From the NCBI GenBank assembly GCA_031410215.1, contig JANNYQ010000076.1, positions 1-38,392 of the forward strand: a stretch of 38,392 bases of DNA, in the 5' to 3' direction. A program made the position numbers and the translations under genes. The notes under the pieces are model-generated. The model did no database searches. It saw nothing but the letters and a program-made list of their open reading frames with translations, and was not told the origin of the DNA. Positions 1 through 38,392 of the stretch are shown here, in pieces. Within the stretch, counting starts at the first letter, position 1, and each line of letters opens with the position of its first letter. The stretch is from Candidatus Altimarinota bacterium (GTDB taxonomy: Bacteria > Patescibacteriota > Gracilibacteria > BD1-5 > UBA2023).

Positions 1-66
1 GTAATACAGAATGTATAAGAAGTGTAATACAAACATATAAGAAATGTAGTACGAAATTCGGCAGAT
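1..66. repeat. Three degenerate ~22-bp direct repeat units at the window edge
   Basis: Read directly. Units 1-22 GTAATACAGAATGTATAAGAAG, 23-44 TGTAATACAAACATATAAGAAA and 45-66 TGTAGTACGAAATTCGGCAGAT share a GTA(A/G)TAC...TATAAGAA core. The array may continue upstream of the window. Confidence 0.3.
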
Positions 67-248
67 TTTTCGTATTTTTGCTTATAACAAAGGATTTCCC
101 GAGAAAAAAGACCGAAAAATTGGAAAAAACAAAAAAATCTCTCTAAAAAAGAGAGAATTTTCTATTCTCGTGGAATTATGATCGTAAAGTAGTGATAGTC
201 ATCACTAGGCTCGTATCGTCCCGTAGAAATCTGACAAGATTGTTTTAA

Positions 249-324
249 TGGTGGGAACGCCGGGATTTGAACCCGGGACCATCGCCTTAAAAGGGCGTTG
301 CTCTACCAACTGAGCTACGTTCCC
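249..324 (-). tRNA. tRNA-Lys (anticodon UUU), 76 nt, CCA encoded
   Basis: The reverse complement reads GGGAACG-TA-GCTC-AGTTGGTA-GAGC-A-ACGCC-CTTTTAA-GGCGA-TGGTC-CCGGG-TTCAAAT-CCCGG-CGTTCCC-A-CCA. It has a 7-bp acceptor stem, D arm, anticodon loop CU-UUU-AA, T arm with GGTTCAAATCC-type loop, and a 3' CCA. Confidence 0.93.
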
Positions 325-353
325 ATGGATACTGACAGTAGCTAACTCGCGAG

Positions 354-382
354 ATAATATACAAAAAGATTGTTTTGTCGAA
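354..382 (-). promoter_or_regulatory. Candidate sigma70-type promoter for tRNA-Lys (TTCGAC-17-TATTAT)
   Basis: On the minus strand, -35 TTCGAC lies at 377-382 and -10 TATTAT at 354-359 with a 17-nt spacer, about 30 nt upstream of the tRNA 5' end. Confidence 0.3.
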
Positions 383-411
383 TTTATTTTTATTTTTCCT
401 CCGTTTTTCCT

Positions 412-439
412 TTGCATAAGTACTAAAAAGACATATACT
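412..439 (+). promoter_or_regulatory. Candidate promoter of the giant gene (TTGCAT-16-TATACT)
   Basis: TTGCAT lies at 412-417 and TATACT at 434-439, with the ATG at 456. The same TTGCnT...TATACT architecture recurs upstream of der, ftsH and the A2M gene. Confidence 0.4.
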
Positions 440-455
440 CAGCCTCATATTCTCC

Positions 456-3400
456 ATGAAAATTCCCAAATTTTTTTCTCGCATTCTATTTCACAAAACT
501 ATTGCCGCAACGCTCGTCATGATGATCCTCGTATCACAGACGATACATGTGGATTTTTTTGATAGAGTTGAGGCGGGACCTGAGAACTATCGAGATATTG
601 TCTCTATCATCGTCGATCGTGATACCTACAAGCAACAGAGAAGTTCCATCAAAAGGTATGCAGAGGATATCGCAGGATACCTCGGAGGAGTACGGACCTC
701 GATACTCGTCGTTGATCCCAATACTCCAGTGGCGACTATCGCCGCCAAAAATGAAAAATTCTACTATGAAGGTGATGGTGAGAAATGAACATCATCACTT
801 GTTGGTACCATCTTGATCGGGAATATTCCTATTCCTCAGGTGACAAAAGAGGGGCAGGGATTCTCGAGTCTCTATCCATATGTAGACTTCGATGACAAGG
901 TATTTGTCTATGACTCTACGAGTACTCAATACAGATATAATAGTCAAGATCCAAAAGTAGAACAAGTGGATATATGGCATGGCGTCATTAATCCAGCTGT
1001 CGGCCGTGGTTGGTCTGGTGTTACTGATATTGCTAAAATAGGACAGTTTCTCGATAAGACACATGATTTTTATACAAAAAGTGGAAAATTTACCCCAAGT
1101 AGTACTCCACCGAGAGTTTTTTACTATGATCAGTATCTCGAACAGAGTTCACTTGATTATACTCAGATACCCGCTTACGCATTGTTTATCAAAAATGCTG
1201 AAGAGATTGTATATAATCGATTTAGTAAATACTTCCTTGGGTATATAATTTCTGAACTCAACAGTCTCAAAAAAAATGATCAAAGTGATATAGAAAAAAA
1301 TATATTACTAGCTGCTGGAGTTGACCCCGAGACACAAAATAGTGTATTCCCATTGTCACAAATAGGAAAAATGCCGGATATACAAACTCGTATTCCAGCT
1401 ATGCAACTCATGAAACAATTTTATGAGCTGGTCAATAAAAAAACTCTCTGAGATATTCGAGCAGCGGTACATAATGCTTGACGTTATAATAGTGGAACAA
1501 CCGTAGCAGTCGATCAGCCAACACTTTTGATCACTATGGCGGATCAGATTGCTATGAATATTATCAAGTCATCCAATGATAAGTTCGAAAAATATATCGA
1601 TGAGGTAGAAGTGGGGTATGAGAAAAATGCCTGAGCAATAGGAGCTATGCCCCCATTTGATAGTACTACCATCAATGATCCAGTTGATAGAATTAGTCGT
1701 ACATATGCTGCATATATTTTTGGTAAACCAGTATCAGAAATGGATAATATTACTCAATGTAGTATTGCTCGTGGTTCTGACTATATAAGTTGACTATACA
1801 AACAGGGTATACTTGTAGAGGCAAATCAGGCATTCAATGGATATACTACTATCGAGAATGTCAAAAATTTTGAACGAGATGGCAAAAAAAGAGTCAACTG
1901 TGCACCAGGTGGTATAAATAGCCTTAAGACAGATACCTATTGGGGTAAAAATATTATCACTAATATGGATGTTGAGAACTGAGTATTTAAGCAACCATCT
2001 TGGATCGGCGGGTACTATGAGAATATATTTTCTCTCGGTGGTATGAATGAAGTAACTACTATAACGGGTGCTATCAGACTTGCTCATATTCCATGATGAT
2101 CTGATGCTAATACTATAACTCCACTTGCGAGTAACTCTTGTTATGCTGACGGTCTTGCCTATATGCTCCAAGAGCCACGAGGGAAAAATGGTGAAGAACC
2201 ATGGCCTAAAAAAGAAAGTGGAGAGGCAGCATGAGATTCTGCTATAACTTGTCTAACACAACAAGAAGAGCATAGTCATGCCTCTTGGTGAGGTGCTAAT
2301 GTGCCATATGCATCACGATTTCCTCCACATGAATTCGATTGGATAGCGAGTGTTGCTTGACCTGGTGATGATCCTCAGTCATTTGATCCTGCTCTAGCAT
2401 GACCAAAATGAATCTGTGAATTTTGACAAATTGCTATATATATAGCACCAACATCATATTTTTCGGGTGCTACCGTCAACCCAAGGTCGTCAGATTTTGT
2501 CTATGCATGTCTCCCGAGTGCATGAGAAAAATGTACACTTCAACCAGGTGAACTCATATCTGAAAAATGTCTCCCAAGAAATCTCAATCAATATATTGAT
2601 ACACTGGTTCAGTGATGATGAGCAGGTAGTATCTGTCCAGCGGTGAATCCTAAACCGAATGTTCTCTATAAAACTGCATGTTGAATTCTCTGAGATGAAA
2701 AACATGGTGCTGCAGAAGGAGGTAATTTTCGAAATAAATATGAACAAGATATTCCAGGTGGGTGGGGATGAATGTTCAATTCACCTTGTGCCGCACTCGC
2801 AGCAGTACAAAAAGAGAACGGATGAGTAGTACAGACTAATACAGTAATAAATCTCTGTATGGCAGTAGAAGATCCTACTATCACACAAGAGTATTCCTGA
2901 CTCAAAAAAGATCTTACAACATATGAAACTGCGGTATTCAAGGATATTAAAGACTCTCGAGTTTATCATAAATCGCCTACAAATGAAGAGATACAAGCAG
3001 CACAAGAGGCAAATGCTACTCCGTCTATACCAATAGATCATGACAGATATATATCATTTGCTCAGTCTGTTGGATGAGAATATAAGATCAAATATCCCAA
3101 CTTTTTTCGATTTGATCTCGAAAAATTACTCATACAATATCAGATTCGTATAGCTACAGATCTCATGACTATGCGTGGCAAGGAGCGAATTCGTCAATAT
3201 GGTACTTGAGCTGCAACAGCTATCACAGCATTCCGACTTGAGCTCGATCGTCTTGGGAAGGCAGCTTGGGCTGGTATACCATTGTCTGGATGAGCACTAT
3301 TGACAGCCAATCCTCCTGATCCAGCATGCTGGGGAGGACAATTTTCTGATGTACCTCTATGCAAGCCATCTACACCTGGATATAGAACTCCCGAAGAACT

Positions 3401-6400
3401 CCTTGATGGGCCCCTCGCAGATACTGAGATATACGAAGTTATCAGATCTCGCAATTGGTTGCACCCAGATATCAACGGGAAATATAGAACTATTATTTCT
3501 GCCGCCCTTTCCTATGGAGGAGGAGAGACATCGAGTATATCGACGACATCCCCTCAGGACTCAACATGTGAGCTCTCGCGATATATATGATTCACATGAT
3601 CAACTCTCACATGAGCTATTTCTGATACTCACTGTATCAGTGAACCTCCAAGATTCCAAAAATCAAAAGATGGATATGAAATCGCCTATCTCTGACTTAC
3701 TCCATATGATGGAGTTGATGCTGCATGGAACACAGATGAATCAGCGATCGCGAGTGATTATGCTATTTGACTCAATGAGATTGAATGAGTCAATATCACG
3801 CAAGAGTGAAATTTCGGTGCTTCAGGTGATGAGAATAAAATAACTAATCCTGCTACTCAATGTGGACCACCTGATGGTGTACCACTTCTCCAATGGCCGA
3901 GTGCTATCATGTGTTGGATAAAAGCACAATTCCCACCAAAAATCCTCGCAGGCTCATGTGGGCCTACAACTATTTGAATATCGAGTGGACTTTCTTCCGC
4001 AAATTCTCTTCCTATTTCCTCCGTATCATCTGCTATAGCAAATAATATGGTTGGACTCCAGGAATTTTATACTGGCGCACGACTCATAGCAAGTATGCCC
4101 CGATCTAGTATTACATTGCACGATAGTATCACTATAGATCTCACTCTCCAGAAGAAAGATACACTCCTCTCATCTCTTCCAACTAGTAAGGCATACCTCC
4201 AGATGGTTTCTGGTAGTAGTCAATGAAAAAAAATAGAATCCTGAAATTTGAGTAAATACCTCACGATTACTCCATCTGAAATGCAGGTTTGAGAGAAGGG
4301 CACCACCTTCATTATCAACTCACTTGGAAAAATAGCAGATATAGATCTACAAGCATATTATCTTATACCTCTTCCAGATGGTAGCGAACTCCGTATTGAT
4401 ACAGCGGTATTCTCAATTCGAATCACACCAGAATATTATGATCTCCAACTCGAGCAATCAGGTGCTATAGTAGCTGGAATAGATATAACGACAGTCGATC
4501 CTGTGAAACTTCGTATTCAAAAGATATTACAAGATACCATTAGAACTGCTTATACGAATTTTATTGCTATTCGTATTATCGATGATGTGAGTTGAAATAT
4601 CGTATATTCAAACTCCAAGTTCAATCCTACTACAGATACTATTCCCACCACTATTACCAAGAAAACTGGAGTATATAGAGTATCGGTATATGATAGTAGT
4701 GGACTGTCATGAGAGATGACATTTTCAGTACGTTCTGGAACTATATCACAAGTTCGTATAACACCTATTTCTTCTGCAATTGTCAGATGAGAACGTACTC
4801 TTGCTATGGTGCGACTTCTTGATCGTCTTGGTAATACTATCACACCAGATATTCATTCTCTTGATATTGAGGTAACATGAGGATATATTGTTGACTCAGT
4901 AGGACTCAAGAAAACAAAAATGGTTCTCGATGTTATTGAATCACAAGTACCGATAATTGTCGGATCTGATACTCCAGGTATACTCAATATTACGGCTACA
5001 ATAGATTGATGATTGGTTACTCAGACTGATATCACCGTTCATGATACAGCTCGTATTGTGCTCATGCGAGATAGTCTCCCTCGAGTTGGAGGAACTCAAG
5101 TTTCAACTCACATTGAAGTTCAAGATGCTTCAGGGAGCCGTATCGCTTGACTCTCGGCAGTTGCGAGTATTACTCTTCCTGCTGGAGCTGGCTCATTTTC
5201 CAAAAAAGCTATAACTATTACAGATGGTGTTTCTGAAATATTTGACTATATTCCTGGCACTATATCATGAGATCACTCGATATCAATCGATATTGCTGGT
5301 ATCTGATCAGTTTTTGATATAATCTTCTCCTTGCTCCCCGGAGATCCAATGTATATCAATCATATCAGATGAGAGAATAGTATATCGTTTGTCTTGAGAG
5401 ATCGTTACGGGAATATATCAAATTCAAATCTTGCAGGCACTCTTGTTCGCAATAGCGAACTTAGTAAAACTATTAATTTTGTATCTGGGCTATATAACTC
5501 ACCACTTCAGTCAGGATATTTCAAACTAGAAGTACCGTGACTCAAAAATAGTACTATAGTATATTCTGATGATGTATGAAGTCATACGGTAATGGGTATA
5601 TCCAAATATATTGCATATATTGTTGACAGCACCAAAAAAATACAATTTTCCCCTGACTATAATGCGAGGTATACGGTTCTTGCATGAGGTGATTTTGTTC
5701 GTGAATGAGAACAGATTCTCTACGATTCTCTTCCATGACAATCCCAGAGCCTAGCAGTGACAACAGAACTTGTTTCACCGTACAAAAAAGATATTCTTTT
5801 TTCTCTATTTCCAGATGGATCATATCGTCTCGGACAACTTTCTGATACTGCTATACAGACGAGTATATCTCTTTCCAATAATCTACCACTCCTCACTGTA
5901 TCTGATCTTACTTCACATAAGCAAATAGCTCAAGTACTCTATCCAATGAAGAACGTTCTTTTTGATATATGTCAAAAAACTCAACAAGAGCGTTGCGAGA
6001 CAACTCCAATTAAACCAACGATTCGTATCGTACTTCCAGTAGATCCCACTCTTACATCAATTAATACTAATGATATTGTCACTCTCAAATCAGAGAATAC
6101 TGTATTAGCTACTATAGATACTAATGGGAGTATATATATATCTAATGATATACAGATCATACCGGATGATATGAGTGTCCATGGATTATCTATGCGTATA
6201 GTCCAATCAGGTAGAGATATAGCTGTTTTGACTTATGTAACTGATAATACAAAATCTATTGCCCTCAAGGAAAGTCAGTCTCCAAATGTACCTCTCTTGC
6301 TTAATTCAGGATTCTCTCTCTCTAAAATGTCTATTTCCAGTGAGAATAATACTACCTATGGATATCAGACCATTCGAGAATCTCTAGGGCATGATATCGA

Positions 6401-9400
6401 TGATAGCAAAAATGGCCCCTCTCATACCGACTCACTTGGCTCATTATCCGAAGTACCATCTGTAGGATGGTCATCCAATAATACTACGCTTCTCTCATAT
6501 GCTGCTGGTGACACAGTGTGAGAGTCTACTCGGTTTTTTCACACATATACCATGATAAATATGGGTGATCCAGTTGCACACATTGATCATGGTCGTCCAG
6601 GTACTGAGACAGATGGCATAGATCGAAGTATTGGATCTATACTAGAACGAGATACTCGATCTAGTATAGCGAATTTTGCTCACCGAGATATGGATGCTGA
6701 TGGGATAGAGGACTTGATTGTAGTATATCAAGATGGCTATATAGGATTATTATTGAATAGATGAGGTAAATTCAGATCCCGTGGTATGATAGCATACAAC
6801 CGAGATATAGATTCTCAAAACATTATTTTCGCAGATTTTATTCGCGATTGATACTGAGATATACTATGACTTGATAAACAAGGGTCTTTTATCCTCATTG
6901 ATAATTCTAATCGGAAATTTGTTCGAAAGAATATAGTTCTCGAATTATGAGCCCCTCTTCCAAGTCACATATCTCAATTCCGTATCCATGATATGGATGC
7001 TGACGGACGTGATGATATAGTTTATATAACAGCAGGTTGAGAACTTGCTATACTCTATGGTACTCAAATAGCAGGGAATTTTATCAAAAAAATCCTCGAT
7101 CCAACACTTGGACTCACTCTCTCATCTGTGCCCGTCAACGTGGGAGGTGCTATTCGGACCAATACTACCCCACAATTCCAGTGATCTGTCTGAGTTGCTC
7201 CTACCAATTCATCAGGCATAGATGATAGCGTGCTCAAATGAGAAGTATTCTATCAATATAGTCAGCTCAATCCAGCTCCTTCTATTGCTCAAGTGAGTCT
7301 CGAGGTACTTTCAGGTACACTTGATGATATATCAAATGGAACCACAGGAAATAGGGTATCTACATTTATCAGGAGTCAGTATGCTAAGGCCTACGGACTC
7401 AATGTAGAGAAAGTATATACAAATACAACTCATGCAACTCTCTATCCGGATGATCGTATTGCAGCTACTATTCGTATCGAGAACAGCTCATCTCAGATCA
7501 TGAGATGAGTCGAATATCTCGATACTATTCCCAAAATATTTAGTGTAAAAGATACACAAAAATATATTATACGTCGTTCAAATACCAGTATATCAAGAGA
7601 ATATAAGGCTATATGAGATGGCGAATATGATACTCATTTTATTCTCTGAGATATATCCCCTGGAGAAAAAATAGAAGTCATATATGAGATGGTGGCATTA
7701 CCAGCTAGCTACGGAGAGATGATAGTGGGTGATCTTGAATGAGGAATGACTGGAACTGATATATATGGAGATATTGGATTCAAAACATCTACTACTTGTG
7801 GTGCCAGTATGCTTCTCTGGCTCTCATGACCCGACCCAAGAGACTACACGAAATGAACTCATGAGTTTGGTTCCGCAAACTTCCCTGATGGAATGAGTAG
7901 CCGTCTTATTGATATTAATAAGGATAGTATACCCGATAGTATCATGAATAGATCTCGAGAAGATCTCATCAAGGATAAAGAAACTCTTGTGAACTCGAAT
8001 AAAATTAACTATTCTGGACCAATTCTAAATATTAAAAATAATCAGGGTAGTGCTAGTATCGGACTTGACGATAATTTTGCAGATAATCTGAGTCAGACTG
8101 TTGAGGATATTGCTAACTGACTTTCTTGTGGATTTGGAGGTGGCTCATGTATGAGTTTTCCTATGAATTGGGCACCTCTTGCTCCTGGATCAGATCCAGT
8201 TTTATTTGGGAATCCTATAGGTGATGGACTCAAGGTCTGAGAATGACTTCCTATATTTTCAGCCCTTACGGGTATACCAATATATGGTACTTGGGGATGT
8301 TTCCCTATGCCATCTGTATGGCCAGTATCTCCCATTGGATATACAAGTACCTGTTCATCCAATACTCCCAATGCTGGATGATACCTTGGTACAAATGATC
8401 CTACCAATTTTCTTCGTATTTTTGTCACACCGACTCTCACTCTCGGTATGGGTACAGCCATCTGTCTCTGAGGTCCAGCGAGTACCGCCTGACAGATACC
8501 TCCTCGCTGACTCTCTCCTCTGATACAATGAGGAAATTGTATTGTTGTAACTAAACCCATGAATGTGTGTAAGTGAGATGGATCTTCGAGTGATGGTGAT
8601 GTAAGTGCTATATCAGGTCTCGGAGGAGTTGGTTGAGATAGTTGGAATGCCTCAAGTTGTCAACCTCAAGCAAATACTATCACTGAATCAGATAATCGTG
8701 CTCTCACAGAGAGCATTGTAGGATATTTGAGAAATCCGAATCCGAATCAACTCACAGGAATATACTCAAATATGAGTATGCGATGACCAAGATCTAGCAA
8801 TGTATGACCACTCATTGCTATTGGATGAGCTGCGAGTGGATGATCTGAGATAAGTATAGAGGTAGATTCAAATACAAAAATATCTGATATTGGATCTGTT
8901 ATTAAGGTTAAAAATAAACGAATTGCTGCATTCCCAGATTTTGTCATGGATTGGCTTACAAGACAGACGGAAGAGCTCACAACATCGCTCTTCACACCAC
9001 CTAATCTGACGATTATTCCTCCGACGAGCTTTGGTCAAAATGCCCAGGTCGATTCGAGCTATGCTGATTTTTCGAAGAATCTTGGGAAAAAATTCTCAAG
9101 TGCGAATCTGGATAATATCAAACAGGGAAGTAGTACTGTCTTTGCTGCCAAGGGGGGATGAGTACCTGGTACGCTTAATGCTATGAAATCCGCCTATACA
9201 TTGATCGGGAAACTGCCATTTGTCTCGATCAAACAAGTCAATATCCCACTCAATATCCCATGGTTTGATAAGACAGAACTCGCCAAATACCAGAGATCAC
9301 TCGATGGATATAAAAAAGAGATTGATACGACTCTGAAGAATTTTTGTATCAATGATCCATCCCCCGCTTGTCTCGATAAAAAAGCCAAATTCCAAAATGG

Positions 9401-12400: not shown

Positions 12401-13010
12401 ACCAACTCACTTGTTCCGAGTGAGATCTTGAGAGCAGCCGATCCTCCTCTCTTCAGGTTCTACGCTATCGAGCTCATTTGGATGATTTGCTACGGGTTCA
12501 TTTTTTGTCTCTCCTGAGACGATCACACTCAGCAAGTGACCAAAAATCGGAACCACAACCACAAGAGGTGAGATCACACTCAGTCCTGGGCATCGTACAG
12601 ATATTGCCCCTGCGACTCCGACGGATCCGATGCGGATACTCACGGTCGATGCATCAGGATCGATATCACATATACATATACTCACACTTCCTGATGATGC
12701 CAGATTCATCGATAGTTCAAAGAATACGAGCACAGCTACTGGTGTTATCCTTACACCTTCATCTGGTATCTCTCGTATCGTAACTGCGAGTTCGACAGAC
12801 CCATCGATCCCCGCAGGACAGTATATCACGGATATGGGCTACCGACCACTAGCAGCACTTGCCCGAGATGGCAATATCTATACGCTCGATCCGCTTGTGA
12901 CTCTCAGGTATCGTAGCAGGGACTGATATATGAGTATCGAGATCATTAAACGCGGGATAGTGGTTGCGACGGTGGAGTATCGTATCGATTTTTTCTATAC
13001 GCTGCGGTAA
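456..13010 (+). CDS. Giant secreted/anchored cell-surface protein (~4184 aa) with FG-GAP/VCBS-like, Ig-like, Cys-rich and Pro-rich modules (table 25)
   Basis: By hand reading, the frame with pos mod 3 = 0 has no TAA or TAG from ATG 456 to TAA 13008-13010. Track ORFs starting at 456, 813, 3300, 5757, 6552, 7293, 7893, 8946, 9183, 10893, 11775 and 12630 all share this frame and are separated only by TGA. An upstream in-frame TAA at 417-419 fixes the start. The N-terminus MKIPKFFSRILFHKTIAATLVMMILV looks like a signal peptide or anchor. DxDxDG motifs are present (HRDMDADGIEDLIVVY, IHDMDADGRDDIVYI, IDIDGDGDLDYIYLLDG). Confidence 0.85.
9855..10025 (+). repeat. Pro/Leu-rich low-complexity tract inside the giant CDS
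   Basis: The translation reads RLPSLPSLSAGSLSASLSLPGLPILPGLPPLPDLPDLPSLPKIKLPDLPPPPKIPKI. The DNA is CT-rich with reiterated ctt-cca / ctc-cca units. Confidence 0.8.
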
Positions 13011-15576: not shown

Positions 15577-15921
15577 ATGATCCAAAAAATCCACATCAAC
15601 CTCTGCTCTGTAAAAAATAAACAGTCTCTCTTTGATATATTTGCATCGACTTTTTCATTTCCTCCATATTTCGGGAATAACTGGGATGCACTCTATGATA
15701 TGATGAGCTCACTCGATCCAGCCGCAACTATATTCCAGGATATGAAAAAGCCACTAACGGGTATCCATATCATACTCGATGGATTTGATGCCTTTGAATT
15801 TGTTTTTCCAGAGACTGATTTGGATCGGTTCCGAGCTCTTCTTATTGATCTCTCGGTATCTCGGGATTTTCGCCCAGATCAACTTTCATTCACATTTGAG
15901 ATCCGATATTCTCAGCAATAG
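15577..15921 (+). CDS. Barstar-family (barnase/RNase inhibitor-like) protein
   Basis: A 114-aa ORF with no TGA. FPPYFGNNWDALYDMM matches the barstar core LPEYYGENLDALWDCL. It starts 3 nt after the upstream stop and ends in TAG. Confidence 0.75.
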   Translation: MIQKIHINLCSVKNKQSLFDIFASTFSFPPYFGNNWDALYDMMSSLDPAATIFQDMKKPLTGIHIILDGFDAFEFVFPETDLDRFRALLIDLSVSRDFRPDQLSFTFEIRYSQQ

Positions 15922-26800: not shown

Positions 26801-29584
26801 CGCTGTGATCAGAGTTCCAGGTGTCACCATCCGACTCGTCAGAGTCGCCCCGAGAGGATTGTTCATATCAGCCATCTTGTACTGCTGTCCGAGTGCGACT
26901 GCGAGCGTCGCTGGAGTTACGACTGTCTCCCCAGTGATAGGATCTACTATCGTGACCTCAGCTGTATATATGTAGTCATCAGAGAATGATGAGAAAGCGA
27001 CCTCAGTACGGAGTACACCATATCCATCCTTATCAATCGATCCCGTTCCCTCGGTATAAAATTCGGGTGTCGGCTCGTAATAGCATCACCAGAAGCACTC
27101 TCCCCAGTAGCTCATATCGTAGTGGATACTTTTATATATTCGATATGTGAATGGGATACTTCGGATTTGTGATCCATTATAATAACGTGCTTTTACTACT
27201 CACTCGATGGTCAAGTTAGATTGGTATGATTTTTCATACCATGGATATTGCGTGTCGATATTGGCGACTTCTCGGATATTGTTGATTACGCCACCCGTGA
27301 CCTGAGGACTCGAGAGTTGTACCTCGGCGGTGAATGTAGGATTCGAGAATATCTCAACCTGGAAGTTGGTATATCCACTCGTAATATAAGTATTCGTATC
27401 TCACGCAGGTTGTATGGAGACACTATAAGAGCCTAGAGCGGCATCACTCGCGAGTATGAGACTCGTAGCTACAGACCCGTAGTCATTGGCTTTGATGCGT
27501 TTGCTCGCGACCTGTTTTCATTCCTGATCGGATATATTGATGTCGAACTCTTCTCCAGTCGGGATCGTGAGATTCTTTTCATTTTTTCTCAGGTATCACT
27601 TGATATAGACGGTCTCCCCAGGGAGATAGAGTCTGCGATCCGTATGGATATAGGCACTGTAGAGAGATCTATTGTCCCATCCGTAGTCGGATTCTTTGAG
27701 TCCAAAGTTCCATCCAGTGATCCCGTCATTCCATGTACTAACCACATAGCCGAAGTGACCAACTCATCGTGAAACTGCAACAAATGAGTTGTATCGTCAT
27801 TCATAGTCTCCCCACCATTCCGAGGTCAAACTGTATGGATTATTGCCATCGAGTTCTACTGTATTTTTTGCTAGAGTTCCATCTTTTCAGGTTTTCCCCA
27901 GTATGATCCCAGTACCCCATGAGAGAGACGAGAGTGGAGTATAGGTGATATCGTATGATTGTTTGCCCTGATTCCAGCTCTGAGTATAGAGTTGTGATAT
28001 ATTATTGCGGAGTGTGATATCTTGTTCGCTCCGTGGCTCTCCCGTTCGTATATCGGTTGCGAGCAATTGTGTCTTACCGCTGGAGTCGATTTTCATCGTG
28101 ATATGTGTATCGACCACAGAAAATACTCTCGGTGCGACCCATCTGTCCAGACCCGTGATATCTTCTTTGTTTTGGAACGCCATGATATAGAGTCCTGGAG
28201 TGAGTCACTTCGCTATGAATCCATTCACATCAAAGGTTGTAACCGCAGATCCTGGGGTCATTGCGATCGTTTTTTTGGTACAGGCTGATACAGTAGATCC
28301 TGAGAGTAGATCATATACCGATTGTGTATGATCTTTTTTCCTGAGCTCGTTCATCCGCTCGACTCTCGCATATCCCTCGAGACTGATCTGGCAGAGCTTG
28401 ACTTCGTATTCATCCTTGACTCCTTGACTCCGATAGAGTTTTGCTGGAATGACATCACCATATCTGAGTATGGTTTTGTTACCTCATATTCTCAGAGAGA
28501 GTGATGGGATCGCCTTAGCTGTGATATCGAGTGAGGTACTCGTAGATCGACCATATATATCTTCGATACTATCGAGGGAGATTCGATACTCTTTTGACTC
28601 CAAGAGTCTCGCATATACGATTGCCCGATTGGGGGAGAGCTCGAGATCCGCCTCTGTCACATTGATCTCCGGAGATATAGAGAGATGCTTGAGGAACTCT
28701 ATCTTGGCTGATTGTCTATTCTCCATATATTCTCTACTATAGAGTGTCCCAGTATCTGCGAATATATCCGTCGCAAAATGGAACTCGATCCGACTCTGCA
28801 TATCGTACTCTGGCGAGAGTATATCAGTCATTACGCCGCTCGCAGTGAATACATCAAGCGGAGGGAATATGATGGAGGTACTATCGCCCACAACTCCCAC
28901 AGTGATACATCCATCACTTGGATATTCGTATCACTCCAATATATAGGTACCGACTTGTTTTTGGCTGATGGTATGATTTTCGAGAGCTCTTTGTTTCATT
29001 AGGGTCCATGCAGATGGATCTGATTCGATACTACAGCTACGATCGGCCCCCATTTTTTTACTAAACCATCTCACATCAGCAATGTCTATACCACTATATC
29101 CGTATATAGTGAGCTCATAGTTCATATCTCTTGGGAGTCATATTCTCCCCAGCTCTATCCCTCTTGGATCATCGGAGTAGGTGAGTGAGATATTGCGTGG
29201 AAGCTCCCATTTTCTCGTTGTTGTATTATTATACGTCTTGGCATCTATTGTTATGACATCTCACTTGACGAATTTAGTTGGAGATATGAGTATATTTGCC
29301 CCACTCACTACGAAATTCGCCTCTCCAGAAACTGTTGGATCCCATGTTTTCCCATTTTTGGTAATTGCTCACTTGACTGCCTCGGGGTCGAGATATCCGC
29401 CGTAGATAGCAGATGCGAGCCATGGTTTGTTGAATGCGACATTGAGGGATTGTCCTACTTGTTTCTCAGCTCATACCAGTGTGAATACGAGCGTCGTCGT
29501 CGCTAGTGTATATGCGTGATAGCCGAGGAGGCCGACCGCAAGAGTTGCGAGTACTACAAGCAGGTACTGTGGGATTTTTGCCAT
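23810..29584 (-). CDS. Bacterial alpha-2-macroglobulin family protein with thioester motif (1924 aa)
   Basis: Track ORFs 28931-29125, 28484-28900, 27887-28183, 26606-26875, 25487-25726 and 24443-25417 all share the frame of ATG 29584. By hand reading only TGA interrupts it, 26 times, down to TAA 23810-23812. The thioester site YPYGCIEQT has GCIEQ at 25199-25213. MG-domain signatures include HTDRRLYLPGETVYIKG and VVDESLIRLLG. The C-terminus carries LEDYIPGGWRP. The N-terminus has a hydrophobic anchor, MAKIPQYLLVVLATLAVGLLG. Confidence 0.9.
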
Positions 29585-29647: not shown

Positions 29648-30322
29648 CTATATCTGGTAGCGGATTGCCTCGATCATCTTCTCTATATTGGGTTCAAGTG
29701 GTGTTTGAGGCATCTTGGCATCCACGATGACGAACATATCACCAGTTTTTCTATCTTGACTCCGCCCCTTTCCAGACACCTTGAACCGAGTTCCTGGTTT
29801 GGTTCCTGCCTTGACCTTGAGTGTGAGGACTTTGCCATAGACGGTTTTGACTGAGATAGATGTATCATAGAGAAAGTCGAAAAATGGTATTGCAACAGTC
29901 TCAGTGACATCGAGATTCACGATTTCTTTTGTTGGTTCTGGCTCTCTCGCTTGTTGTCGAGACTGTGTACGTCCACCACCGAAGAGGTCTCCGATATCGA
30001 ACTCGACACTACCACTTGATCCGCCAAACTGAGAAAAAATATCCTCGAATCCAGCAGACTGTTGTCTTCCGTTCGATCTCCTCTGTCCACCACCGAACGG
30101 ATTGCCCTCAGTAGAACCTGTCTGATCATAATTCTTTCGTTTTTCTTTGTCTCCTAGTGTCTGATAGGCCTCATTGATTTCCTTGAACTTTGTCTCTGCT
30201 TTTTTATCATTTGTATTGCGATCGGGATGGTGTTCCATTGCTTTCTTTTTGTAGGCTTTTTTTATCTCAGCCTCTGTGGCAGTCTTGTCGACACCGAGAG
30301 AGGCATAATAGTCTTTTGACAT
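29648..30322 (-). CDS. J-domain co-chaperone (DnaJ/CbpA-like, no zinc finger, single C-terminal beta-domain)
   Basis: [11 protein letters not shown]...[16 protein letters not shown] carries the HPD motif. It is followed by a G/F-rich linker and a short C-terminal substrate-binding-like domain, with no CxxCxGxG repeats. ATG 30322 lies inside track ORF 29648-30370. It is 224 aa and ends in TAG. Confidence 0.85.
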
Positions 30323-30833: not shown

Positions 30834-32702
30834 ATGTCAAAAAATCCAGATCATATCCAACATATTCTCTCTAATCTTCCAAAAACACCCTGAGTCTACC
30901 AGATGAAGGATGCGAAAGGGGGAGTGATGTATGTAGGCAAGGCGAAGAGTCTCAAGAGTCGAGTTGGTAGCTACTTCGTCAAAACGAGCGATCTCTCAGT
31001 GGCTAAGCGTCAGATGGTAACCAAGATCGCAGATATCGAGATCATCACCTGTCAGACTGAGGTCGAGGCTCTCATCCTCGAGACCAATATCATCAAGCAT
31101 CTCACACCAAAGTACAATATATTAATGAAAGATGATAAGAATCTTGCCTACCTCAAGATCACCAATTCTCCAGTTCCAGAACTCATCAAGACTCGCCAAA
31201 AAATCCGAGATGGAGGCATATATTTTGGTCCATATGTATCCGCAGTGGAGCAATCAGTACGAGCATTGCGTCGGATATTTCGCATCAGGAACTGTCGTGT
31301 CAAGTTCGCAAAGAGAAACGACAATATACAAGTGACTGACAAAGCAGGCCTAACACTCCCATGTATCGACTATTATATCGGTCTTTGTCCAGCTCCCTGC
31401 ATGCTCCATAGCTCGAAGATAGGTGAACATAGTACTAATATTACTCGTGTACAAGGATTCTTATCGGGAGAGGCGAGTACGGTATTCTCGGATCTCGAGG
31501 CTAATATGCGAAATAAGGCTCAGGATCTCGACTTCGAAGAGGCTCAGAAAATCAAAGAAACTATCACGGCACTCCGAGGTCTGCATGAACGACAAAAAGT
31601 CAGGGATATAGTCGATTGAAATATCGATATATGTATACAGTATGAAAAGTATGATAAAACATATATAGCACTCACACAAGTAAGATGATCACAGATTGTG
31701 GGAGTATTTCGTCATGAAATAACAATATGAATCGATGAAGGAGAAGATATTATGATAGCATTTCTGATGAGACAATATCTATCAACTGACTCTCCAGATT
31801 TTCCTGATATATTGCTCTGTCAGCAAGAGTTCAGTGATACGGCGTTCACCTGATTTCTCCGATGACAGCGTATCCAACTCGAAACTCCGAAAATCTGACC
31901 AAAAAAAGACCTCCTCGACTTCACACGCGATCAGCTCCGAGAGTATGCGTACAAGCGGGAACTCGCAACCCTAGAGAATAAGAGCCTCACGAGAGCCCAT
32001 ATGGTCAATGTGCTCGAGCGACTCTCGTATCTTGTTCCTACGAAGGGAGAGATCGTGTTCGAGTGCTATGATATATCACATACAGATGGACACTTCACCT
32101 ATGCGAGTCGAGTAGTGATAGTCAATGGCAAACCTGATCCATCGAGATATCGCAAGTACAAGATCAAAACACTTGATGATGGAATGATCGATGACTATGC
32201 TTCACATCATGAAGTGATGATGCGACGGACAATCGAAGGAATCGAACAAAATAATTTTCCTCATCTCATCATCATCGATGGAGGCAAATGACAACTCTCG
32301 AGTGCGATATCAGGTATCAAAGAGGGCATATATACTGCAAAAAGTGACCAAAACTCTATACCTCCTATTTGCTCCATCGCCAAGCGAGAAGAAGAAATTT
32401 TCCTCCCTGGTAACTCAGGCCCCATAATATTCGCCCCGGGTACACCAGAGCTCATGGTACTCCAAAAGGCTCGAGATGAGTCTCATAGATTCTCTATCAC
32501 AGCGAACAGGTCCGCTCGAAGCAAGGCCATGAAAAAAAATATCCTCGAAGAACTCCCAGGCATTGGTCCTGTCACACGACGCAAGCTCCTGAAACTCGCA
32601 GGAAGTGTCGATGGAATCAGGGATATATCATCTGCAGAAATATCCAAAATTTGTAATATTGCTCAAGTGGAGACACTGCGAGATCATGGGATTATCTGAT
32701 AA
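30834..32702 (+). CDS. uvrC: Excinuclease ABC subunit C
   Basis: ATG 30834 is in frame with track ORFs 30903-31619, 32001-32291 and 32454-32699. The GIY-YIG N-terminus reads LPKTP-G(TGA 30891)-VYQMKDAKGGVMYVGKAKSLKSRV. The endonuclease region reads IIIDGGK-G(TGA 32289)-QL, and the C-terminus has an HhH motif (LPGIGPVTRRKLL). It is 622 aa and ends TGA-TAA, so the true stop is TAA 32700-32702. Confidence 0.93.
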
Positions 32703-32741: not shown

Positions 32742-33716
32742 ATGTATATCCTCGCATTCGAAACATCCTGTGATGATACCTCTATAGCGGTGATGCGTGA
32801 TGATGAGTGCATATCCCTCTCGACTCGTACTCAGCTCGAGCATGATATCACAGGTGGAGTAGTACCTGAGGTAGCAGCTCGTAGCCATGCGAATGCTATA
32901 TTCCCATGTATCGATGATGCACTTCGTGATGCGGGGATCGAGCTCTCCGATATCGATCTCATCGCTTGTACTGATCGCCCTGGTCTCGCTCCCTCGCTTC
33001 TCACGGGTCTTGTTGTTGCAGATACTCTCGCACTCTCGATGAAAAAACCAATACTAAAAATCGACCATATTGAGAGTCATATATTCGCAAATTTCCTCGA
33101 TCGAAAAGAATCAGATATGGTATTTCCTGCGGTAGTGCTAACTGTCTCTGGCTGACATACTGAGCTCTACCAGTGGAACTCTCTATTCGATCTCCAGATT
33201 ATTGGACAGACTCATGACGATGCTGCATGAGAGTGTTTCGACAAGGTATCGAAGATGCTAGGTATGGGTTTCCCAGGGTGAAAAAAAATTGCCGATCTCG
33301 CAGAGAAATATACAGGGGTATACGAGGGGATTTTCCCACTCGTTCTACTCGATCGTGAGTCTCTTGACTTCTCGTTCTCTGGACTCAAGAGTGCGGTGAA
33401 GCGATATATCGATATTCAGATAGCTACACCTGAGTGACTCACTCAGGATAAAAAGATACAGATTGCCTATGAATTCGAAGAAGTAGTAACGGATATCTTA
33501 TCCAAAAAGCTACTCAGAGCCGCTGAGCAGAAAAATGCTAAAATGATCCTCCTTGCCTGAGGTGTGAGTGCCAATACTAAGCTTAAAAATAAAATACAAA
33601 AGATTGCAGATATTGCTCATATCCTATTCCTTGCACCGACTCGGACAATATACTCGATGGACAATGCGGCGATGGTGGGGATGAGGGCATACTATGAATA
33701 TAGCAAGAATATATAA
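32742..33716 (+). CDS. tsaD: tRNA N6-adenosine threonylcarbamoyltransferase TsaD (Kae1/Gcp family)
   Basis: ILAFETSCDDTS is followed by VSG-G(TGA 33153)-HTELY, HDDAA-G(TGA)-ECFDK, LA-G(TGA)-GVSAN and SMDNAAMVG. It is 324 aa and ends at TAA 33714-33716. Confidence 0.93.
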
Positions 33717-33806: not shown

Positions 33807-34721
33807 ATGTTCGGCAAATCAGAATCTTGCACAACCAATTGTGTCACTCCTATTCTCCTCGGTGTTCTCATCATCCTTAATGTGTTCGGACTATTTCTGC
33901 TTATGGGGAACTCATTCTCCCTCCCTGCGAGTATCTCAGTTGATCCTATAGGAGTAAAGAAAGCTCTCCTAGAAATCGAATACTCAAAAGTCGGTGGCAA
34001 GACAAACTATGATATCATGACTCAGGCACAGAACCTCTCAGTCAATGATCCACAGAATCCATCGAATATAGAGGCAATGAAGAAATATATTTCTACATAT
34101 GCTAGTGGAACTAAGGCAACTACTCTACCTACAGCATTAGCAAGTGGCGCTATCATGACACCAACAGAGATCGCAATGATCCTATCTGGTGCTGCTCTCG
34201 AAGGGAACAAATCAGCAGATATCGTCGCTATCGAATACTCTGATATGGAGTGTCCGTTTTGCATCAAACAGTATAGTGAGACAAAAATTCAGGCATCTCT
34301 CTTGGCTCAGTATGGAGACAAGGTTGCATTCGCATTCAAAAATAATCGTGGAGTCAATCATCCTGGAACAGAGGCAAAAGCTCTCGGAGCACTCTGTGCC
34401 AAAAAGGTGGGCTGAGATAAGGCATATAATCAATTCTACAAAGCGATCATGGATGGTACGACACAAGGGAGTGTCTATCCAGTATCCAAGCTTGGAGATA
34501 TCGCCAAAAAGCTCTCACTTGATATGACGAAATGGCAGTCTTGTATTGATAGCAAGGCGACTCTCATAGGACTCGAAGCTGAGACGACTGAGGCTCAGAA
34601 ATATGGAATGTGAGGTACCCCAGGGACACTCCTCCTCAATGTCAAAACAGGGAAGTACACAACGGTCGAGTGAGCATATCCATTTTCATCATTTACTGAG
34701 AAGATCAGCTCTATCCAATAA
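33807..34721 (+). CDS. DsbA-family thiol:disulfide oxidoreductase, membrane-anchored
   Basis: The N-terminus has a hydrophobic segment, ILLGVLIILNVFGLFLL. The thioredoxin-fold active site is ECPFC. Track ORF 33807-34415 continues through 3 TGAs (...YGM-G-GTPGTLLLN...) to TAA 34719-34721, giving 304 aa. Confidence 0.8.
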
Positions 34722-34732: not shown

Positions 34733-34766
34733 AAAAAATACTACTGAGTACTCAGTAGTATTTTTT
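34733..34766. terminator. Bidirectional rho-independent terminator between convergent genes
   Basis: AAAAAATACTACTGAGT / ACTCAGTAGTATTTTTT is a perfect 34-nt palindrome with A-run and T-run flanks. It lies between the DsbA-like gene (+) and the rRNA methyltransferase gene (-). Confidence 0.85.
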
Positions 34767-34827
34767 ATTTGCGTCTCCATTCACTCGAGAATGTATTGGA
34801 TATCGTATCTCATTTGCGATACTCGAG

Positions 34828-36141
34828 TCAGAGTACTTGCTCAGCATAGGTGATGAGAATATGTTCATCAGTCCCAACTGATACTATAGGCTCACCTCTC
34901 AGGTATTTATCAAGTTCTTTCTCATCTGAAATACTATACTTCGGAGTATTGGTCATATCGAGATATCGCCATGCTCGATTGCTTACCGTGAATCGACCAT
35001 GATCTACTATTCCTATCTGTTCTCCATATCGCATGAGAAATACTCTATCTCTGATTCGTGTTCCTGTCTCGTCATTTTGTACTGCCAGTATCTTGTTCTC
35101 ATGCTCATAGAGAGTCACTCCATTCTGAGATTGCCATGGAGATGTATTGCCACGGAAGAGTCGGAGTTCTTTGTTGTTCGTTATCTGGAATTTCGGCTCA
35201 GATTTTTTCCATGATTTCTCTCCTATCTCCTCATTTTCATTTATCCCATATTTGACTCATAGGGATTTTGTTTTCTTGATTTTTGCCACAAAAAACCCAC
35301 CTGTTCCATCGATATGTGGCCAGAATTTCTTCTGAAAAACTATCTCAAATGCATTTCCATACTTTTCATACATAGTATCGAGCACTCACTCATTCTCGAT
35401 CAGATTGAGTGAACAGGTTGAGTATATCATCTCACCTCCGACTTTGAGCGTATGGAGGGCTGCATCGAGGAGCTTAGTCTGGAGTCGAGCTATTTCCTTG
35501 ATATTTTTGAGGTGCCAGTGTCGAACAGCATCAGTTCACTTGAACAATGTACCTTCTCCACTACAGGGAGCATCCAGTAGTACGCGATCGAATATCTCAT
35601 CATGATGACGATAGAGTTGTCCTGGATATAGGGTGATACCGATATTGGCACTCCCCATGCGTTCCAGATTTTGTAATAGCTGTGGGAGTCGCTCTCGGGT
35701 CGGCTCATTTGCGATGATAAAACTCTTCGGATAATATTCTGCGAGTTGTGTTGTCTTACCACCTGGACTTGCTGCTACATCAAGGATCAAAAAATTTTCT
35801 TCATTGATTGTCGAATTGGCAAGTATATCGACAGGATGAGCTGCAGCGAGCTCCTGAATGTAGAAGTTGCCAATGAGATGATCACTCGAGAATCCGAGTC
35901 GGCGCTCAAGTGGATCGAAGTCAGCACGACGATCCATGGCAAAAACCCTAGCAATAGGAGTTGGTGTGAGTATCCAACCGTCTGATTGGAGGTTTTTTTT
36001 CACTTGTTCCATTTTTCATGGTTTGATACGGATTGTACGGAGTATCGGTTTTTGTATTGCCTCGAGGAACTGTTGCAGTTCTGTTTCGTTGCTCGAGAAA
36101 CAATTATCTCGGAAGTAGGTAATGAATCGGTCGTTGATCAT
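34828..36141 (-). CDS. RsmB/RsmF-family (NOL1/NOP2/Sun) RNA m5C methyltransferase
   Basis: Track ORFs 35536-36012 and 34828-35118 share a frame (894-nt offset). The N-terminal extension across a TGA reaches ATG 36141 (MINDRFITYFRD...RTIRIKP-G-KMEQ). Motifs seen: DVAASPGGKT, DAPCSGEGT and YSTCSL. It is 437 aa. Confidence 0.85.
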
Positions 36142-36145
36142 AATT

Positions 36146-36595
36146 TTAGTATATTTTTCGAGATTCTCTATCGAGATCCCGTTCTTTGAGAAGGTTTTTT
36201 TTCTCCCATTTTTTGCGTCATTTCGCGAGTGCCACCCGTACTTTGAATATATTCCCCTTCGAGTAAATACTCACTGGAACGAGTGTGGCACTCGTTTCTT
36301 TGACTTTTTGTCAGATCCTTAGTATTTCTTTTTTTGACATGAGAATGAGTCGTTCTCGCTTGGGATCGATGATGACTCCAGTACTACCCTTGTATTCTGA
36401 TATATGAGATCCGACAAGTATAGGTCGACCTGAGTGGAGGGTGATATAGGCTCACTTGAGATTGACACTTCCATTGCGTATACTCTTGACTTCACTGCCG
36501 ACAAGGACTATCCCAGCCTCGAACTCTTCGATAACCTCATAGTCGAATAGAGCTTTTTTGTTCTCGATGATGACTTGGTTTGCTACGGTTCACAT
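36146..36595 (-). CDS. smpB: SsrA-binding protein SmpB
   Basis: The hand translation reads [53 protein letters not shown]...[75 protein letters not shown]. It has four in-frame TGA and runs in a different frame from track ORF 36319-36504. It ends at TAA 36146-36148, 4 nt before the downstream ATG. Confidence 0.9.
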
Positions 36596-36692: not shown

Positions 36693-36800
36693 ATGATTCC
36701 TTCGGTTTCTTAATTCGGCATTCTGCTCGTAGACGCCCCTTGCGAAGCAGCGCCCTGAAGGAAGTCCTCCAGGGGCAGAAGTACCCTTGGAGTGCCAAAT
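36693..36800 (+). ncRNA. Candidate structured RNA / cis-regulatory leader of unknown class
   Basis: This GC-rich island sits in AT-rich DNA. Outer helix GATTCCTTC (36695-36703) pairs with GAAGGAAGTC (36757-36766). Inner hairpin CTGCTCG (36723-36729) pairs with CGAAGCAG (36743-36750). Loop GCCCCT (36735-36740) can pair with AGGGGC (36771-36776) as a pseudoknot. That pairing competes with CCCTG (36753-36757) / CAGGG (36770-36774). A C(UUCG)G element lies at 36700-36705. Confidence 0.35.
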
Positions 36801-36883
36801 TCGCTTTACTCATTTTATCCTCTTGTTCTATTTGAATTATGAAAATCAACCCAATATACATAATCCTCATTCTCTGACTCAGC

Positions 36884-37054
36884 ATGAGTTCTCTCAGTGT
36901 TACCTATGCGAGTCAACAAAAGTCAGAAACATCAGAAGTTGGACAAACTCATACCACATCACATCCACCACACGATCACCATGAACCTAATCATATCAAG
37001 AAGCTGGATGAGAGTATGCGGCGAAAGCGAGAAGATGAAGAAAAATCCCATTAG
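36884..37054 (+). CDS. Possible His-rich micro-protein (56 aa)
   Basis: MSSLSVTYASQQKSETSEVGQTHTTSHPPHDHHEPNHIKKLDESMRRKREDEEKSH has ATG 36884 and TAG 37052-37054 inside the terminator hairpin. I saw no SD and recognise no family. It could be non-coding. Confidence 0.3.
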   Translation: MSSLSVTYASQQKSETSEVGQTHTTSHPPHDHHEPNHIKKLDESMRRKREDEEKSH

Positions 37055-37067
37055 TGAGTGGGATTTT
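37042..37067. terminator. Hairpin terminator shared by convergent transcripts
   Basis: AAAATCCCA-TTAGTGAG-TGGGATTTT forms a 9-bp stem with T-runs on both strands. Confidence 0.6.
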
Positions 37068-37266
37068 CGGGTAATAGATTAGCAATTGTTTGGCTGATAG
37101 ACTGTATTGTAGTATCTGTTTGATCAAGTAAGCCGAGAGATATGAGAGTTCTGAAAAAATCTGTCAATTTATCGTAAATTACAGAGGGCGGCTTACTAGC
37201 ATTAGCACGAACCTTTTCTATACATAGTACTTTTTGCAATTGTATCCAGTTATTCCATTTACTCAT
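37051..37266 (-). CDS. Hypothetical protein (71 aa)
   Basis: Uninterrupted track ORF MSKWNNWIQLQKVLC... whose last codons run into the 37042-37067 hairpin. I recognise no family. Confidence 0.35.
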   Translation of the reverse strand: MSKWNNWIQLQKVLCIEKVRANASKPPSVIYDKLTDFFRTLISLGLLDQTDTTIQSISQTIANLLPENPTH

Positions 37267-37415
37267 GACTTCTATAGAATAGGGAAGTATACCAACTGAT
37301 GAGATTTCAATATTATTAAAAAATAATCATAAAGACATAGCGCTCACTATATTGACTCATTGTATTTTTTCTCGGATATGGATTTTGAGCGCTACTTTCT
37401 CATTTTCTGACAGCT

Positions 37416-38138
37416 CTAGTATTGTAGTATTTGATGTAGATAGCTTATTGCTCGTCATTGCTCGATGAAGTAAGGTGATGTAGCTATTGTAATATATTTT
37501 ACACGTTTGAGCAAGTTTTTGATGATTTTGATTTTCTTCTCACTCGGAATGTGATCGAGCTCAGGAGCAAATATATCGAGATCCAGATTCAGGACACTAT
37601 TCTCACTCGGTATATAGTCCATATAGGCATCGATCTGGTATTCATTCTCTATACGGATCATAGTACCAACGAGTCCAGACTCTATCGCTGGTACTATATA
37701 GTTTCCGACATTGCAGGAGAGATTGGTGAACTCGTAAGAATATTCTGGATTAGTTATTGCTTTTTCTAGATCGAGATGATTGTCATTGTCCCAGAGATCT
37801 GAGTGCTCATCGATATGTATGAGTTCGAATTCTGCTCGTATGATTCACTGTCTTACAGCATCGAGCCAGAAGTAGAGGGCATGGTTGTGGTTATCGAATA
37901 CGATGATATTTTCACTGAGTTGTACGAAATTCTCGAGTCCGACACACGATCTGATCTCCACATCCTCTATTTCTTCGAAAACTGTCTCAGATCCAATTTT
38001 TACATCATTGATTGTTCCATCGATCAGTGTTGGGATATGCAATATGGGATCTCTCGTGTATTCTAGACGCCTTCTTTCCCATGCGAATGCATTGTTACCA
38101 AGTTTTTGTGTGAGAATTTGTTTATTTGGGTAATACAT
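37416..38138 (-). CDS. Hypothetical enzyme, possibly UPF0489 (C5orf22-like)/arginase-deacetylase-fold family
   Basis: Track ORFs 37845-38138 and 37455-37661 share a frame (477-nt offset) and are joined by TGAs, down to TAG 37416-37418 (240 aa). The metal-site-like motifs IVFDNHNHALYFW and LIHIDEHSDLW recall UPF0489 as I remember it. The function call is tentative. Confidence 0.55.
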
Positions 38139-38392
38139 CGATCGATTGGATTACTAACTCGAATACATCATCTGGAGTCCGATTACTCGTATCGACGACG
38201 ATATCATAGAGATCCATATCATAAATATGGAGTCCATAATACTTCATATAACGATCATTCTCACTTGCTCGTCTCGTCTCGATATTGGCTACTGTATGCT
38301 CGATCGTCTCATGGGTCTCGACACCTTGGCGTGTCGCATCAGCGTATATCCGATGTGCTGCTTCGATCGGAGTCACCGTCAGGAATATCTTG
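38122..38392 (-). CDS. Cytidylate-kinase-like P-loop NMP kinase, C-terminal part (5' end outside window)
   Basis: KIFLTVTPIEAAHRIYADA...ENDRYMKYYGLHIYDMDLYDIVVDTSNRTPDDVFELV resembles the C-terminal half of (archaeal-type) CMP kinases. The frame is open to the window edge. It ends at TAA 38122-38124 and overlaps the next gene's start by 17 nt. Confidence 0.6.
   Translation of the reverse strand, partial: KIFLTVTPIEAAHRIYADATRQGVETHETIEHTVANIETRRASENDRYMKYYGLHIYDMDLYDIVVDTSNRTPDDVFELVIQSIDVLPK

Follow-up and report, generated by a model that had tools for sequence, protein, structure and literature searches.

A genetic code in which UGA specifies glycine, listed as translation table 25, was reportedly described in 2013, by Campbell and by Rinke, for the Gracilibacteria/BD1-5 and the Absconditabacteria/SR1. 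The recoded clade is the class JAEDAM01 of GTDB, which takes in BD1-5 and the Absconditabacterales. Our subject here is the code used by a single contig, JANNYQ010000076.1 (assembly GCA_031410215.1), which is filed under Candidatus Altimarinota and which we analysed as one stretch of 38,392 nt, called the window throughout. We are very nearly certain that the window is chromosomal DNA from an uncultured bacterium in the Candidate Phyla Radiation (CPR), of the UGA-recoded Gracilibacteria (BD1-5) type, in which table 25 applies and TGA is glycine. An initial annotation, made from the letters of the sequence, had proposed just this for the whole window, and the three independent tests that we describe below (codon exchange with orthologues, the columns of distant homologues, and solved structures) all support glycine over tryptophan.

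The same annotation regarded the code as known already, and rightly so. Reassignment of UGA to glycine, with a tRNA-Gly that carries the anticodon UCA, has been published for both Absconditabacteria and Gracilibacteria (Shulgina & Eddy 2021, PMC8629427), and for the group decoding by this tRNA and loss of release factor 2 (RF2) are on record (PMC8629427; bioRxiv 10.64898/2026.05.24.727570). Proteomics of BD1-5 has found 97 peptides unique to a glycine translation versus 3 unique to a tryptophan translation (Hanke 2014, PMC4032931). A further change, in which CGA and CGG are read as tryptophan, is reported in Absconditabacteria, and for CGG it is predicted in some Gracilibacteria (PMC8629427). 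UGA read as glycine, as in the window, is thus already known, and there is nothing biologically new in it beyond what is published for BD1-5 and Gracilibacteria.

Evidence for the code

The window, with a GC content of 0.425, makes very little sense under the standard code. With all three standard stops in force, the longest stop-to-stop open reading frame (ORF; those of at least 100 amino acids were considered) runs to 499 amino acids, while freeing TGA and keeping TAA and TAG as stops raises this to 4196 amino acids, in a 4197-codon ORF at 420-13010 on the forward strand. Freeing TAG instead leaves the longest ORF at 499 amino acids and freeing TAA yields 665, which is no comparable gain. 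Since TAA and TAG together make up about 2.5% of off-frame codons, a stretch of about 4200 codons without them is not a matter of chance; at 2.5% per codon, our own arithmetic puts the probability in the order of 1e-46. ORFs delimited by TAA or TAG, picked greedily so as not to overlap, take up 97% of the window, and after a few spurious antisense ORFs had been swapped for frames with homologues, the final set held 23 protein genes and one tRNA. Thirteen of these genes end in TAA, ten in TAG and none in TGA; internal TAA and TAG codons number zero by construction of the set. The description given at the outset, of standard-code frames shattered into pieces that share a frame and are split by TGA only, is borne out, with one stop codon involved and no frameshift interruptions, and so is the claim that genes end in TAA or TAG and never in TGA; the count of roughly 24 genes becomes 23 protein genes plus one tRNA.

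Of the 12,160 codons, 181 are in-frame TGA (14.9 per 1000), and these lie in 17 of the 23 genes. Counted as glycine, TGA supplies 20% of all glycine codons and lifts the glycine content from 5.9% to 7.4%; counted as tryptophan, it would lift tryptophan from the 0.96% that comes from TGG alone to an implausible 2.45%, and TGG is itself abundant, with 117 codons in the window genes. When the genes are read with TGA open, alignments to solved homologues extend over most of the homologue's length for the FtsH, TsaD, SmpB, MutY and RsmF-like proteins and, for UvrC, over each domain whose structure is solved. Coding in the window makes sense only with TGA as a sense codon and with TAA and TAG as the sole stops.

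What TGA stands for is best seen from the codons with which it is exchanged. The Der protein is free of TGA and hence a code-neutral query, and with it we collected 31 loci related to the window, with Candidatus Gracilibacteria as the title in 28 cases and Patescibacteria group in 3; their DNA identity to the window (about 78-89%) leaves sufficient divergence for substitution analysis. All loci were translated with TGA masked as X and aligned to the window proteins, and codon pairs were tabulated at the aligned sites. A TGA in the window stood opposite GGN 533 times and a GGN in the window opposite TGA 617 times, a total of 1,150, against 2 and 5 TGA/TGG pairs in the two directions, a total of 7. 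Glycine codons account for 51% of the non-identical partners of TGA, the same measure being 45-63% for the four GGN codons. For each of the other codon families, the leading partners in this tabulation code for the family's standard amino acid; ATG and TGG, each the only codon of its family, have no synonym to be paired with. TGG was kept as TGG at 698 of 925 aligned positions and was otherwise replaced by F, Y or L codons, as expected for tryptophan, and the tryptophan in the NKWD motif of Der, singled out in the initial annotation, is indeed encoded by TGG (14001). Among close relatives, then, TGA is interchangeable with GGN. CGA (175 codons, 143.9 per 10,000) and CGG (44 codons, 36.2 per 10,000) are both frequent, and because their partners are arginine codons (50%), followed by lysine, and not TGG, they remain arginine: reassignment of CGA/CGG to tryptophan is absent here, and plain table 25 applies.

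Distant homologues from organisms with the standard code tell the same story for UvrC. A TGA-free segment of 241 amino acids served as the search query, and the full-length matches were then aligned to the TGA-masked window protein, giving a comparison set of 61 cluster representatives at less than 45% identity. Glycine occupies column 20 (P-x-VY) in 57 of the 61, column 355 in 55 and column 486 (DGGK-x-QL) in 46, and it is the plurality residue in column 285; the remaining TGA columns comprise four variable ones and the C-terminal residue. Across all TGA columns the glycine fraction is 0.379, close to the 0.431 of columns encoded by GGN, while columns encoding A, D, S or N reach at most 0.085. 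Log-odds summed over the TGA columns in the style of Codetta come to +12.8 bits for glycine, with glutamate next best at -3.4 and tryptophan at -6.1, and the bits per column are 1.59 for TGA read as glycine and 1.60 for GGN glycine. As a control, the method recovered the correct residue for 19 of 19 testable amino acids.

The UvrC gene ends ...HGII-TGA-TAA, with a TGA (codon 622) immediately before the real stop, and in 48 of the 61 homologues the alignment is already over at this codon. It is harmless under table 25, and it is the sole place where TGA as a stop gives an equally plausible protein.

The third test aligned TGA-masked queries to PDB chains. Ten of the 19 structure-aligned TGA positions are glycine in the best homologue and none is tryptophan, so that, as in the UvrC columns, the TGA positions are neither dominated by tryptophan nor devoid of preference. 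In TsaD four of five TGA positions fall on glycine in all four structures shown, in UvrC two of two, in FtsH two of four (the glycines of AIA-G-E and EMD-G-F in E. coli FtsH), in SmpB one of three (36218, LAK-G-RKK, in three SmpB structures), in MutY one of two (YYQ-G-LGYY) and in RsmF none of three within the well-aligned domain. TGG codons of MutY and RsmF, for their part, align with tryptophan in the structures. The initial annotation had placed TGA on conserved glycines of FtsH (16771, 17002), TsaD (33153, 33228, 33558), UvrC (30891, 32289) and SmpB (36218); the coordinates that it quoted are exact, and the positions do align with glycine in structures or homologue columns.

A comparison of profile scores, which the annotation had put forward as a check, points in the same direction by a modest margin. 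We translated TGA as G, W, X or A in FtsH, TsaD, UvrC, SmpB and RsmB, and over the eight Pfam families common to the four translations the totals are 1073.7 bits for G, 1059.2 for A, 1053.6 for X and 1049.6 for W. UvrC_RNaseH, a ninth family, reaches 35.2 bits if TGA is G and is lost from the list if it is W; most of the gain from glycine is owed to TsaD (+15.8 bits), to SmpB (+6.0) and to the domains of UvrC. In this window, TGA is a sense codon, the equal of GGN in evolution and in structure; all other codons keep their standard meanings, TGG alone is tryptophan, and TAA and TAG are the sole stops.

Gene content

Under table 25 the window reads as follows, in coordinates of the window.

249..324, reverse strand: tRNA-Lys(UUU), called by ARAGORN and Rfam, the sole RNA gene found in the window
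456..13010, forward strand: giant protein of 4184 amino acids with 93 TGA codons, in-frame TGATGA at 2094 and 5007 and TGATGATGA at 2613; ends in TAA
13098..14576, forward strand: Der/EngA double GTPase, 492 amino acids, no TGA; tryptophan of NKWD encoded by TGG at 14001
14578..15573, forward strand: membrane protein, 6 TGA; its TraB/PrgY/GumN-like match is weak and under the Pfam cut-off
15577..15921, forward strand: barstar-family protein, no TGA
16009..17949, forward strand: FtsH protease, 4 TGA, those at 16771 (AVA-G-E) and 17002 (EMD-G-F) on glycines of E. coli FtsH
18005..18475, forward strand: EVE-domain protein, 1 TGA
18450..19667, reverse strand: MutY-like adenine glycosylase, 7 TGA, that of YYQ-G-LGYY on a glycine of MutY structures
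19751-20074, forward strand: small hypothetical protein
20096-20470, forward strand: small hypothetical protein, 2 TGA
20663..22228, forward strand: MFS-type transporter, 521 amino acids, 5 TGA; public assemblies of this locus also give MFS_1
22225..23199, reverse strand: PriA-like protein, C-terminal half only, 324 amino acids, 2 TGA, with a weak match to a Cys-rich zinc ribbon below the Pfam cut-off
23223..23669, reverse strand: NrdR, no TGA
23810..29584, reverse strand: bacterial alpha-2-macroglobulin, 1924 amino acids, 26 TGA, with a CIEQ thioester motif
29648..30322, reverse strand: DnaJ-domain protein, 0 TGA among 22 glycine codons
30415..30765, reverse strand: hypothetical protein, 4 TGA
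30834..32702, forward strand: UvrC, 9 TGA, those at 30891, codon 355 and 32289 in glycine columns
32742..33716, forward strand: TsaD, 5 TGA, those at 33153, 33228, codon 180 and 33558 on glycine in four structures
33807..34721, forward strand: DsbA/thioredoxin-like protein, 3 TGA
34765..36141, reverse strand: RsmB/F-type rRNA cytosine-C5 methyltransferase, 6 TGA, all in variable columns
36146..36595, reverse strand: SmpB, 4 TGA, that at 36218 (LAK-G-RKK) on glycine in three SmpB structures
37051-37458, reverse strand: doubtful ORF of 135 codons, overlapping the 3' end of the UPF0489 gene
37416..38138, reverse strand: UPF0489-domain protein, 2 TGA
38122..38391, reverse strand: cytidylate kinase gene, truncated by the window edge to its 3' end, with a weak Pfam match below the cut-off

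The 4184-residue product takes up a third of the window, has a hydrophobic segment at the N-terminus and is found conserved at loci of related Gracilibacteria, and its sole Pfam match is one FG-GAP-like repeat at residues 2078-2137; it is probably a giant surface protein. The runs of in-frame TGA at 2094 and 2613 had been spotted at the outset, and that at 5007 is an addition. No helicase core adjoins the PriA-like ORF, since NrdR abuts it upstream, and the same 324-residue call is made in a public contig of this locus (L154). The ORF would represent a primosome protein that is split or else truncated. The stretch of about 0.8 kb (36596-37415) that separates smpB from the UPF0489 gene contains nothing but the doubtful 135-codon ORF. 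Rfam and ARAGORN find no RNA in this interval and no tmRNA beside smpB, and across the whole window Rfam reports the tRNA only.

Decoding and lineage

Published work on the group suggests how the code would operate here. UGA would be decoded by a dedicated tRNA-Gly whose anticodon is UCA, this tRNA would carry the glycine identity set G1:C72, C2:G71, G3:C70 and U73, and with RF2 lost UGA would no longer be recognised as a stop. An episymbiotic or predatory lifestyle may likewise be expected, on the basis of the literature on the group rather than of the window itself. As for lineage, the nearest matches to Der are metagenome-assembled genomes (MAGs) labelled Candidatus Gracilibacteria by NCBI, which have the same TGA usage, and these labels together with the shared usage are what would place the contig in the recoded clade. 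The exact Der protein is not on record in public assemblies; the NrdR protein is, on contigs none of which exceeds 5.4 kb, and because public copies of the population are no longer than this, the window cannot be extended toward tRNA-Gly(UCA) or prfB.

We also scanned metagenomes for the anticodon-loop, T-arm and acceptor-end pattern of a glycine-type tRNA(UCA), which gave 120 loci, of which 15 have a UCA tRNA. Low-GC contigs among the loci (L044, L106, L111, L115, L133 and L137) carry UCA tRNAs of 73-77 nt with acceptor ends of the form GCG...CGC-U73, and their ORFs are intact only if TGA is read through. ARAGORN calls such glycine-type UCA tRNAs 'tRNA-SeC'. On L115 (GC 0.346) TGA makes up about 45% of glycine codons.

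Several of our results pull against table 25 for the window, or against the mechanism and placement that come with it, and they deserve to be set out together. Nine of the 19 structure-aligned TGA positions are not glycine in the homologues (K, R, V, D, M/Y/I, V, L, D/N and A/F); all nine are in variable columns, as is also seen for glycine encoded by GGN. Generic Pfam models discriminate weakly between G and W (AAA +0.3 bits, RsmB-F -0.8, GIY-YIG -0.5), and with a modest margin overall and some families indifferent it is the family-specific columns that carry the argument. No tRNA with a UCA anticodon occurs in the window (ARAGORN, Rfam) or in the 31 related loci (ARAGORN), where ARAGORN calls tRNA-Ser and tRNA-Gln only. 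There is no prfB within the 38-kb window, which proves nothing, as this is a matter for the whole genome, and the mechanism is to that extent inferred for this bacterium. The contigs with tRNA(UCA) have no protein or DNA similarity to the window or its relatives, and since nothing links them to the lineage they support the general mechanism only. Finally, the NCBI label 'Candidatus Gracilibacteria' also spans lineages that use table 11 (PMC8629427; bioRxiv 10.64898/2026.05.24.727570), so that taxonomy alone is no proof of the code, and it is the direct tests that establish it.

Other explanations

The rival that survives best accepts glycine and holds that its decoding at UGA is non-uniform, inefficient or partly ambiguous, with selection keeping TGA out of the most critical genes. 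We consider this unlikely. In its favour, TGA is used unevenly. Its share of glycine codons is 0/34 in Der, 0/22 in the DnaJ-domain protein, 4/52 in FtsH and 5/46 in the MFS transporter, against 93/350 in the giant protein and 4/12 in SmpB, and over the 23 genes the heterogeneity is significant (chi-square p = 4.6e-4). The following base differs as well: TGA is followed by G in 43% and by T in 15% of cases, GGA by G in 30% and by T in 33%. Such uneven share and context could reflect expression-linked avoidance of TGA or context effects on UGA decoding. Outside the window, rare BD1-5 peptides with other residues at UGA have been recorded by proteomics (PMC4032931), and wobble at U34 could in principle blur UGA and UGG (PMC8629427). 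On the other side, TGA sits at catalytically important, invariant glycines of the essential TsaD, FtsH and UvrC, which argues for efficient and faithful decoding, and the heterogeneity among the 23 genes may equally reflect expression-linked codon bias or local GC. One could go on to suppose that reading UGA as glycine is costly or slightly ambiguous, and that selection would purge TGA from housekeeping genes and let it accumulate in the giant surface protein. That idea, drawn from sequence counts in 23 genes, strikes us as improbable too, but if it were true the purge of TGA would amount to a fitness footprint, open to measurement, of a codon reassignment that is not fully 'settled'.

Far less probable is tryptophan at TGA (table 4), as in the Mycoplasmatales and several insect endosymbionts. 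Table 4 restores long ORFs just as table 25 does, and some public pipelines apply it to contigs of this kind, as with the UvrC entry P0063 discussed below. Against it, TGA exchanges with TGG 7 times versus 1,150 times with GGN, tryptophan is found at none of the 19 structure-aligned positions and scores -6.1 bits in the UvrC columns, where glycine scores +12.8, the W translation is 24 bits lower in Pfam with one family lost, tryptophan content would reach 2.45%, and TGG, with its 117 codons, is abundant and conserved. On the column and exchange tests we regard tryptophan as refuted.

Still less credible is the view that the standard code holds and that the TGAs are true stops in a decaying, pseudogenised genome, or errors of assembly or sequencing. 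It is true that table 11 fragments every gene and that assemblies of the same locus at ENA have been called as table-11 fragments. Decay or error would hardly confine itself to one of the three stop codons, never with a frameshift, nor choose invariant glycine positions; about 30 independent relatives share the usage, with TGA and GGN interchanging at orthologous sites, and contigs assembled independently match the window at 99.4-99.5% identity. We therefore reject pseudogenes and assembly error, given interruptions by TGA only, at invariant glycine sites, with the same usage in relatives.

That the TGAs are selenocysteine (Sec) codons or programmed read-through sites, an idea prompted by the role of TGA as the Sec codon and by the default ARAGORN label 'SeC' for UCA tRNAs, we judge to have practically no chance, being excluded by the frequency of TGA (181 codons across 17 of 23 genes) and by column identity, for these codons fall at glycine rather than Cys or Sec columns, and the UCA tRNAs found elsewhere measure 71-77 nt, lack a long variable arm and show glycine-type acceptor stems.

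Consequences for annotation

With glycine at TGA, annotation, protein-family assignment, structure prediction and completeness estimates of this contig all hinge on table 25: the default table 11 shatters every gene in the window, and table 4 turns each recoded glycine into tryptophan. Both outcomes can be found in public data. The public contigs L155, L156 and L157, compared with L154, represent the same locus as window positions 19920-26696 and are 99.4-99.5% identical where measured; the accessions of this population are SRR20217212 and ERZ28573559. ENA calls at this locus are table-11 fragments, among them an 86-residue piece and a 394-residue piece of the 521-residue MFS gene, whereas the Logan calls read through TGA and give proteins of 961 and 324 amino acids.

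The second kind of error is exemplified by P0063, a public UvrC cluster representative of 622 amino acids that as deposited contains 32 tryptophans and 1 glycine, with W in the invariant glycine columns (PWVYQ, DWWKWQL, LPWFWVKT). This is the protein of an organism with UGA as glycine, translated with table 4, and an annotation error that is propagating into the protein databases. Through P0063 we came upon a contig of 5071 bp and 20.8% GC (Logan SRR22387826_21069, L158 in our set), with genes at 1-612(-), 719-1270(-), 1401-2183(+), 2190-2864(+) and 3165-5033(+), whose 1,497 codons include 98 in-frame TGA, 4 GGN and 9 TGG. Here glycine is encoded almost wholly by TGA in place of the GGN box, and the sole GGA in its UvrC stands opposite an Asp of the window protein. 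For comparison, 20% of the window's glycine codons are TGA, and the share at the Gracilibacteria loci is 5-33%. TGA share was set against GC for all fetched loci, and we use the values for the Gracilibacteria loci and L158 only: high-GC contigs with the standard code contaminate the crude ORF calls, and for this reason the correlation over all loci was left unused. In a limited search of the literature we found no description of an extreme like that of L158, with TGA nearly replacing GGN.

Comparison with known codes

Three described codes lie close enough to the window to be worth comparing. With table 4, as used by the Mycoplasmatales, Hodgkinia, Nasuia and Zinderia among others, the window shares UGA as a sense codon, an expected loss of RF2 and a reduced genome, but its UGA is glycine and not tryptophan, and TGG is not displaced by TGA. 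With the extended code of the Absconditabacteria, a sister lineage, it has the UGA-as-glycine background in common, whereas CGA and CGG in the window are frequent and are arginine, not tryptophan; the lineage is thereby confirmed as one of plain table 25, without CGA/CGG reassignment. With table 25 of Gracilibacteria/BD1-5 and Absconditabacteria/SR1 the window agrees in that TGA stands in frame at glycine, TGG is tryptophan, TAA and TAG are the stops, the nearest relatives are Candidatus Gracilibacteria MAGs and the GC content of 0.425 lies inside the published range of 0.21-0.53, and nothing that differs from this group was found in the 38-kb window.

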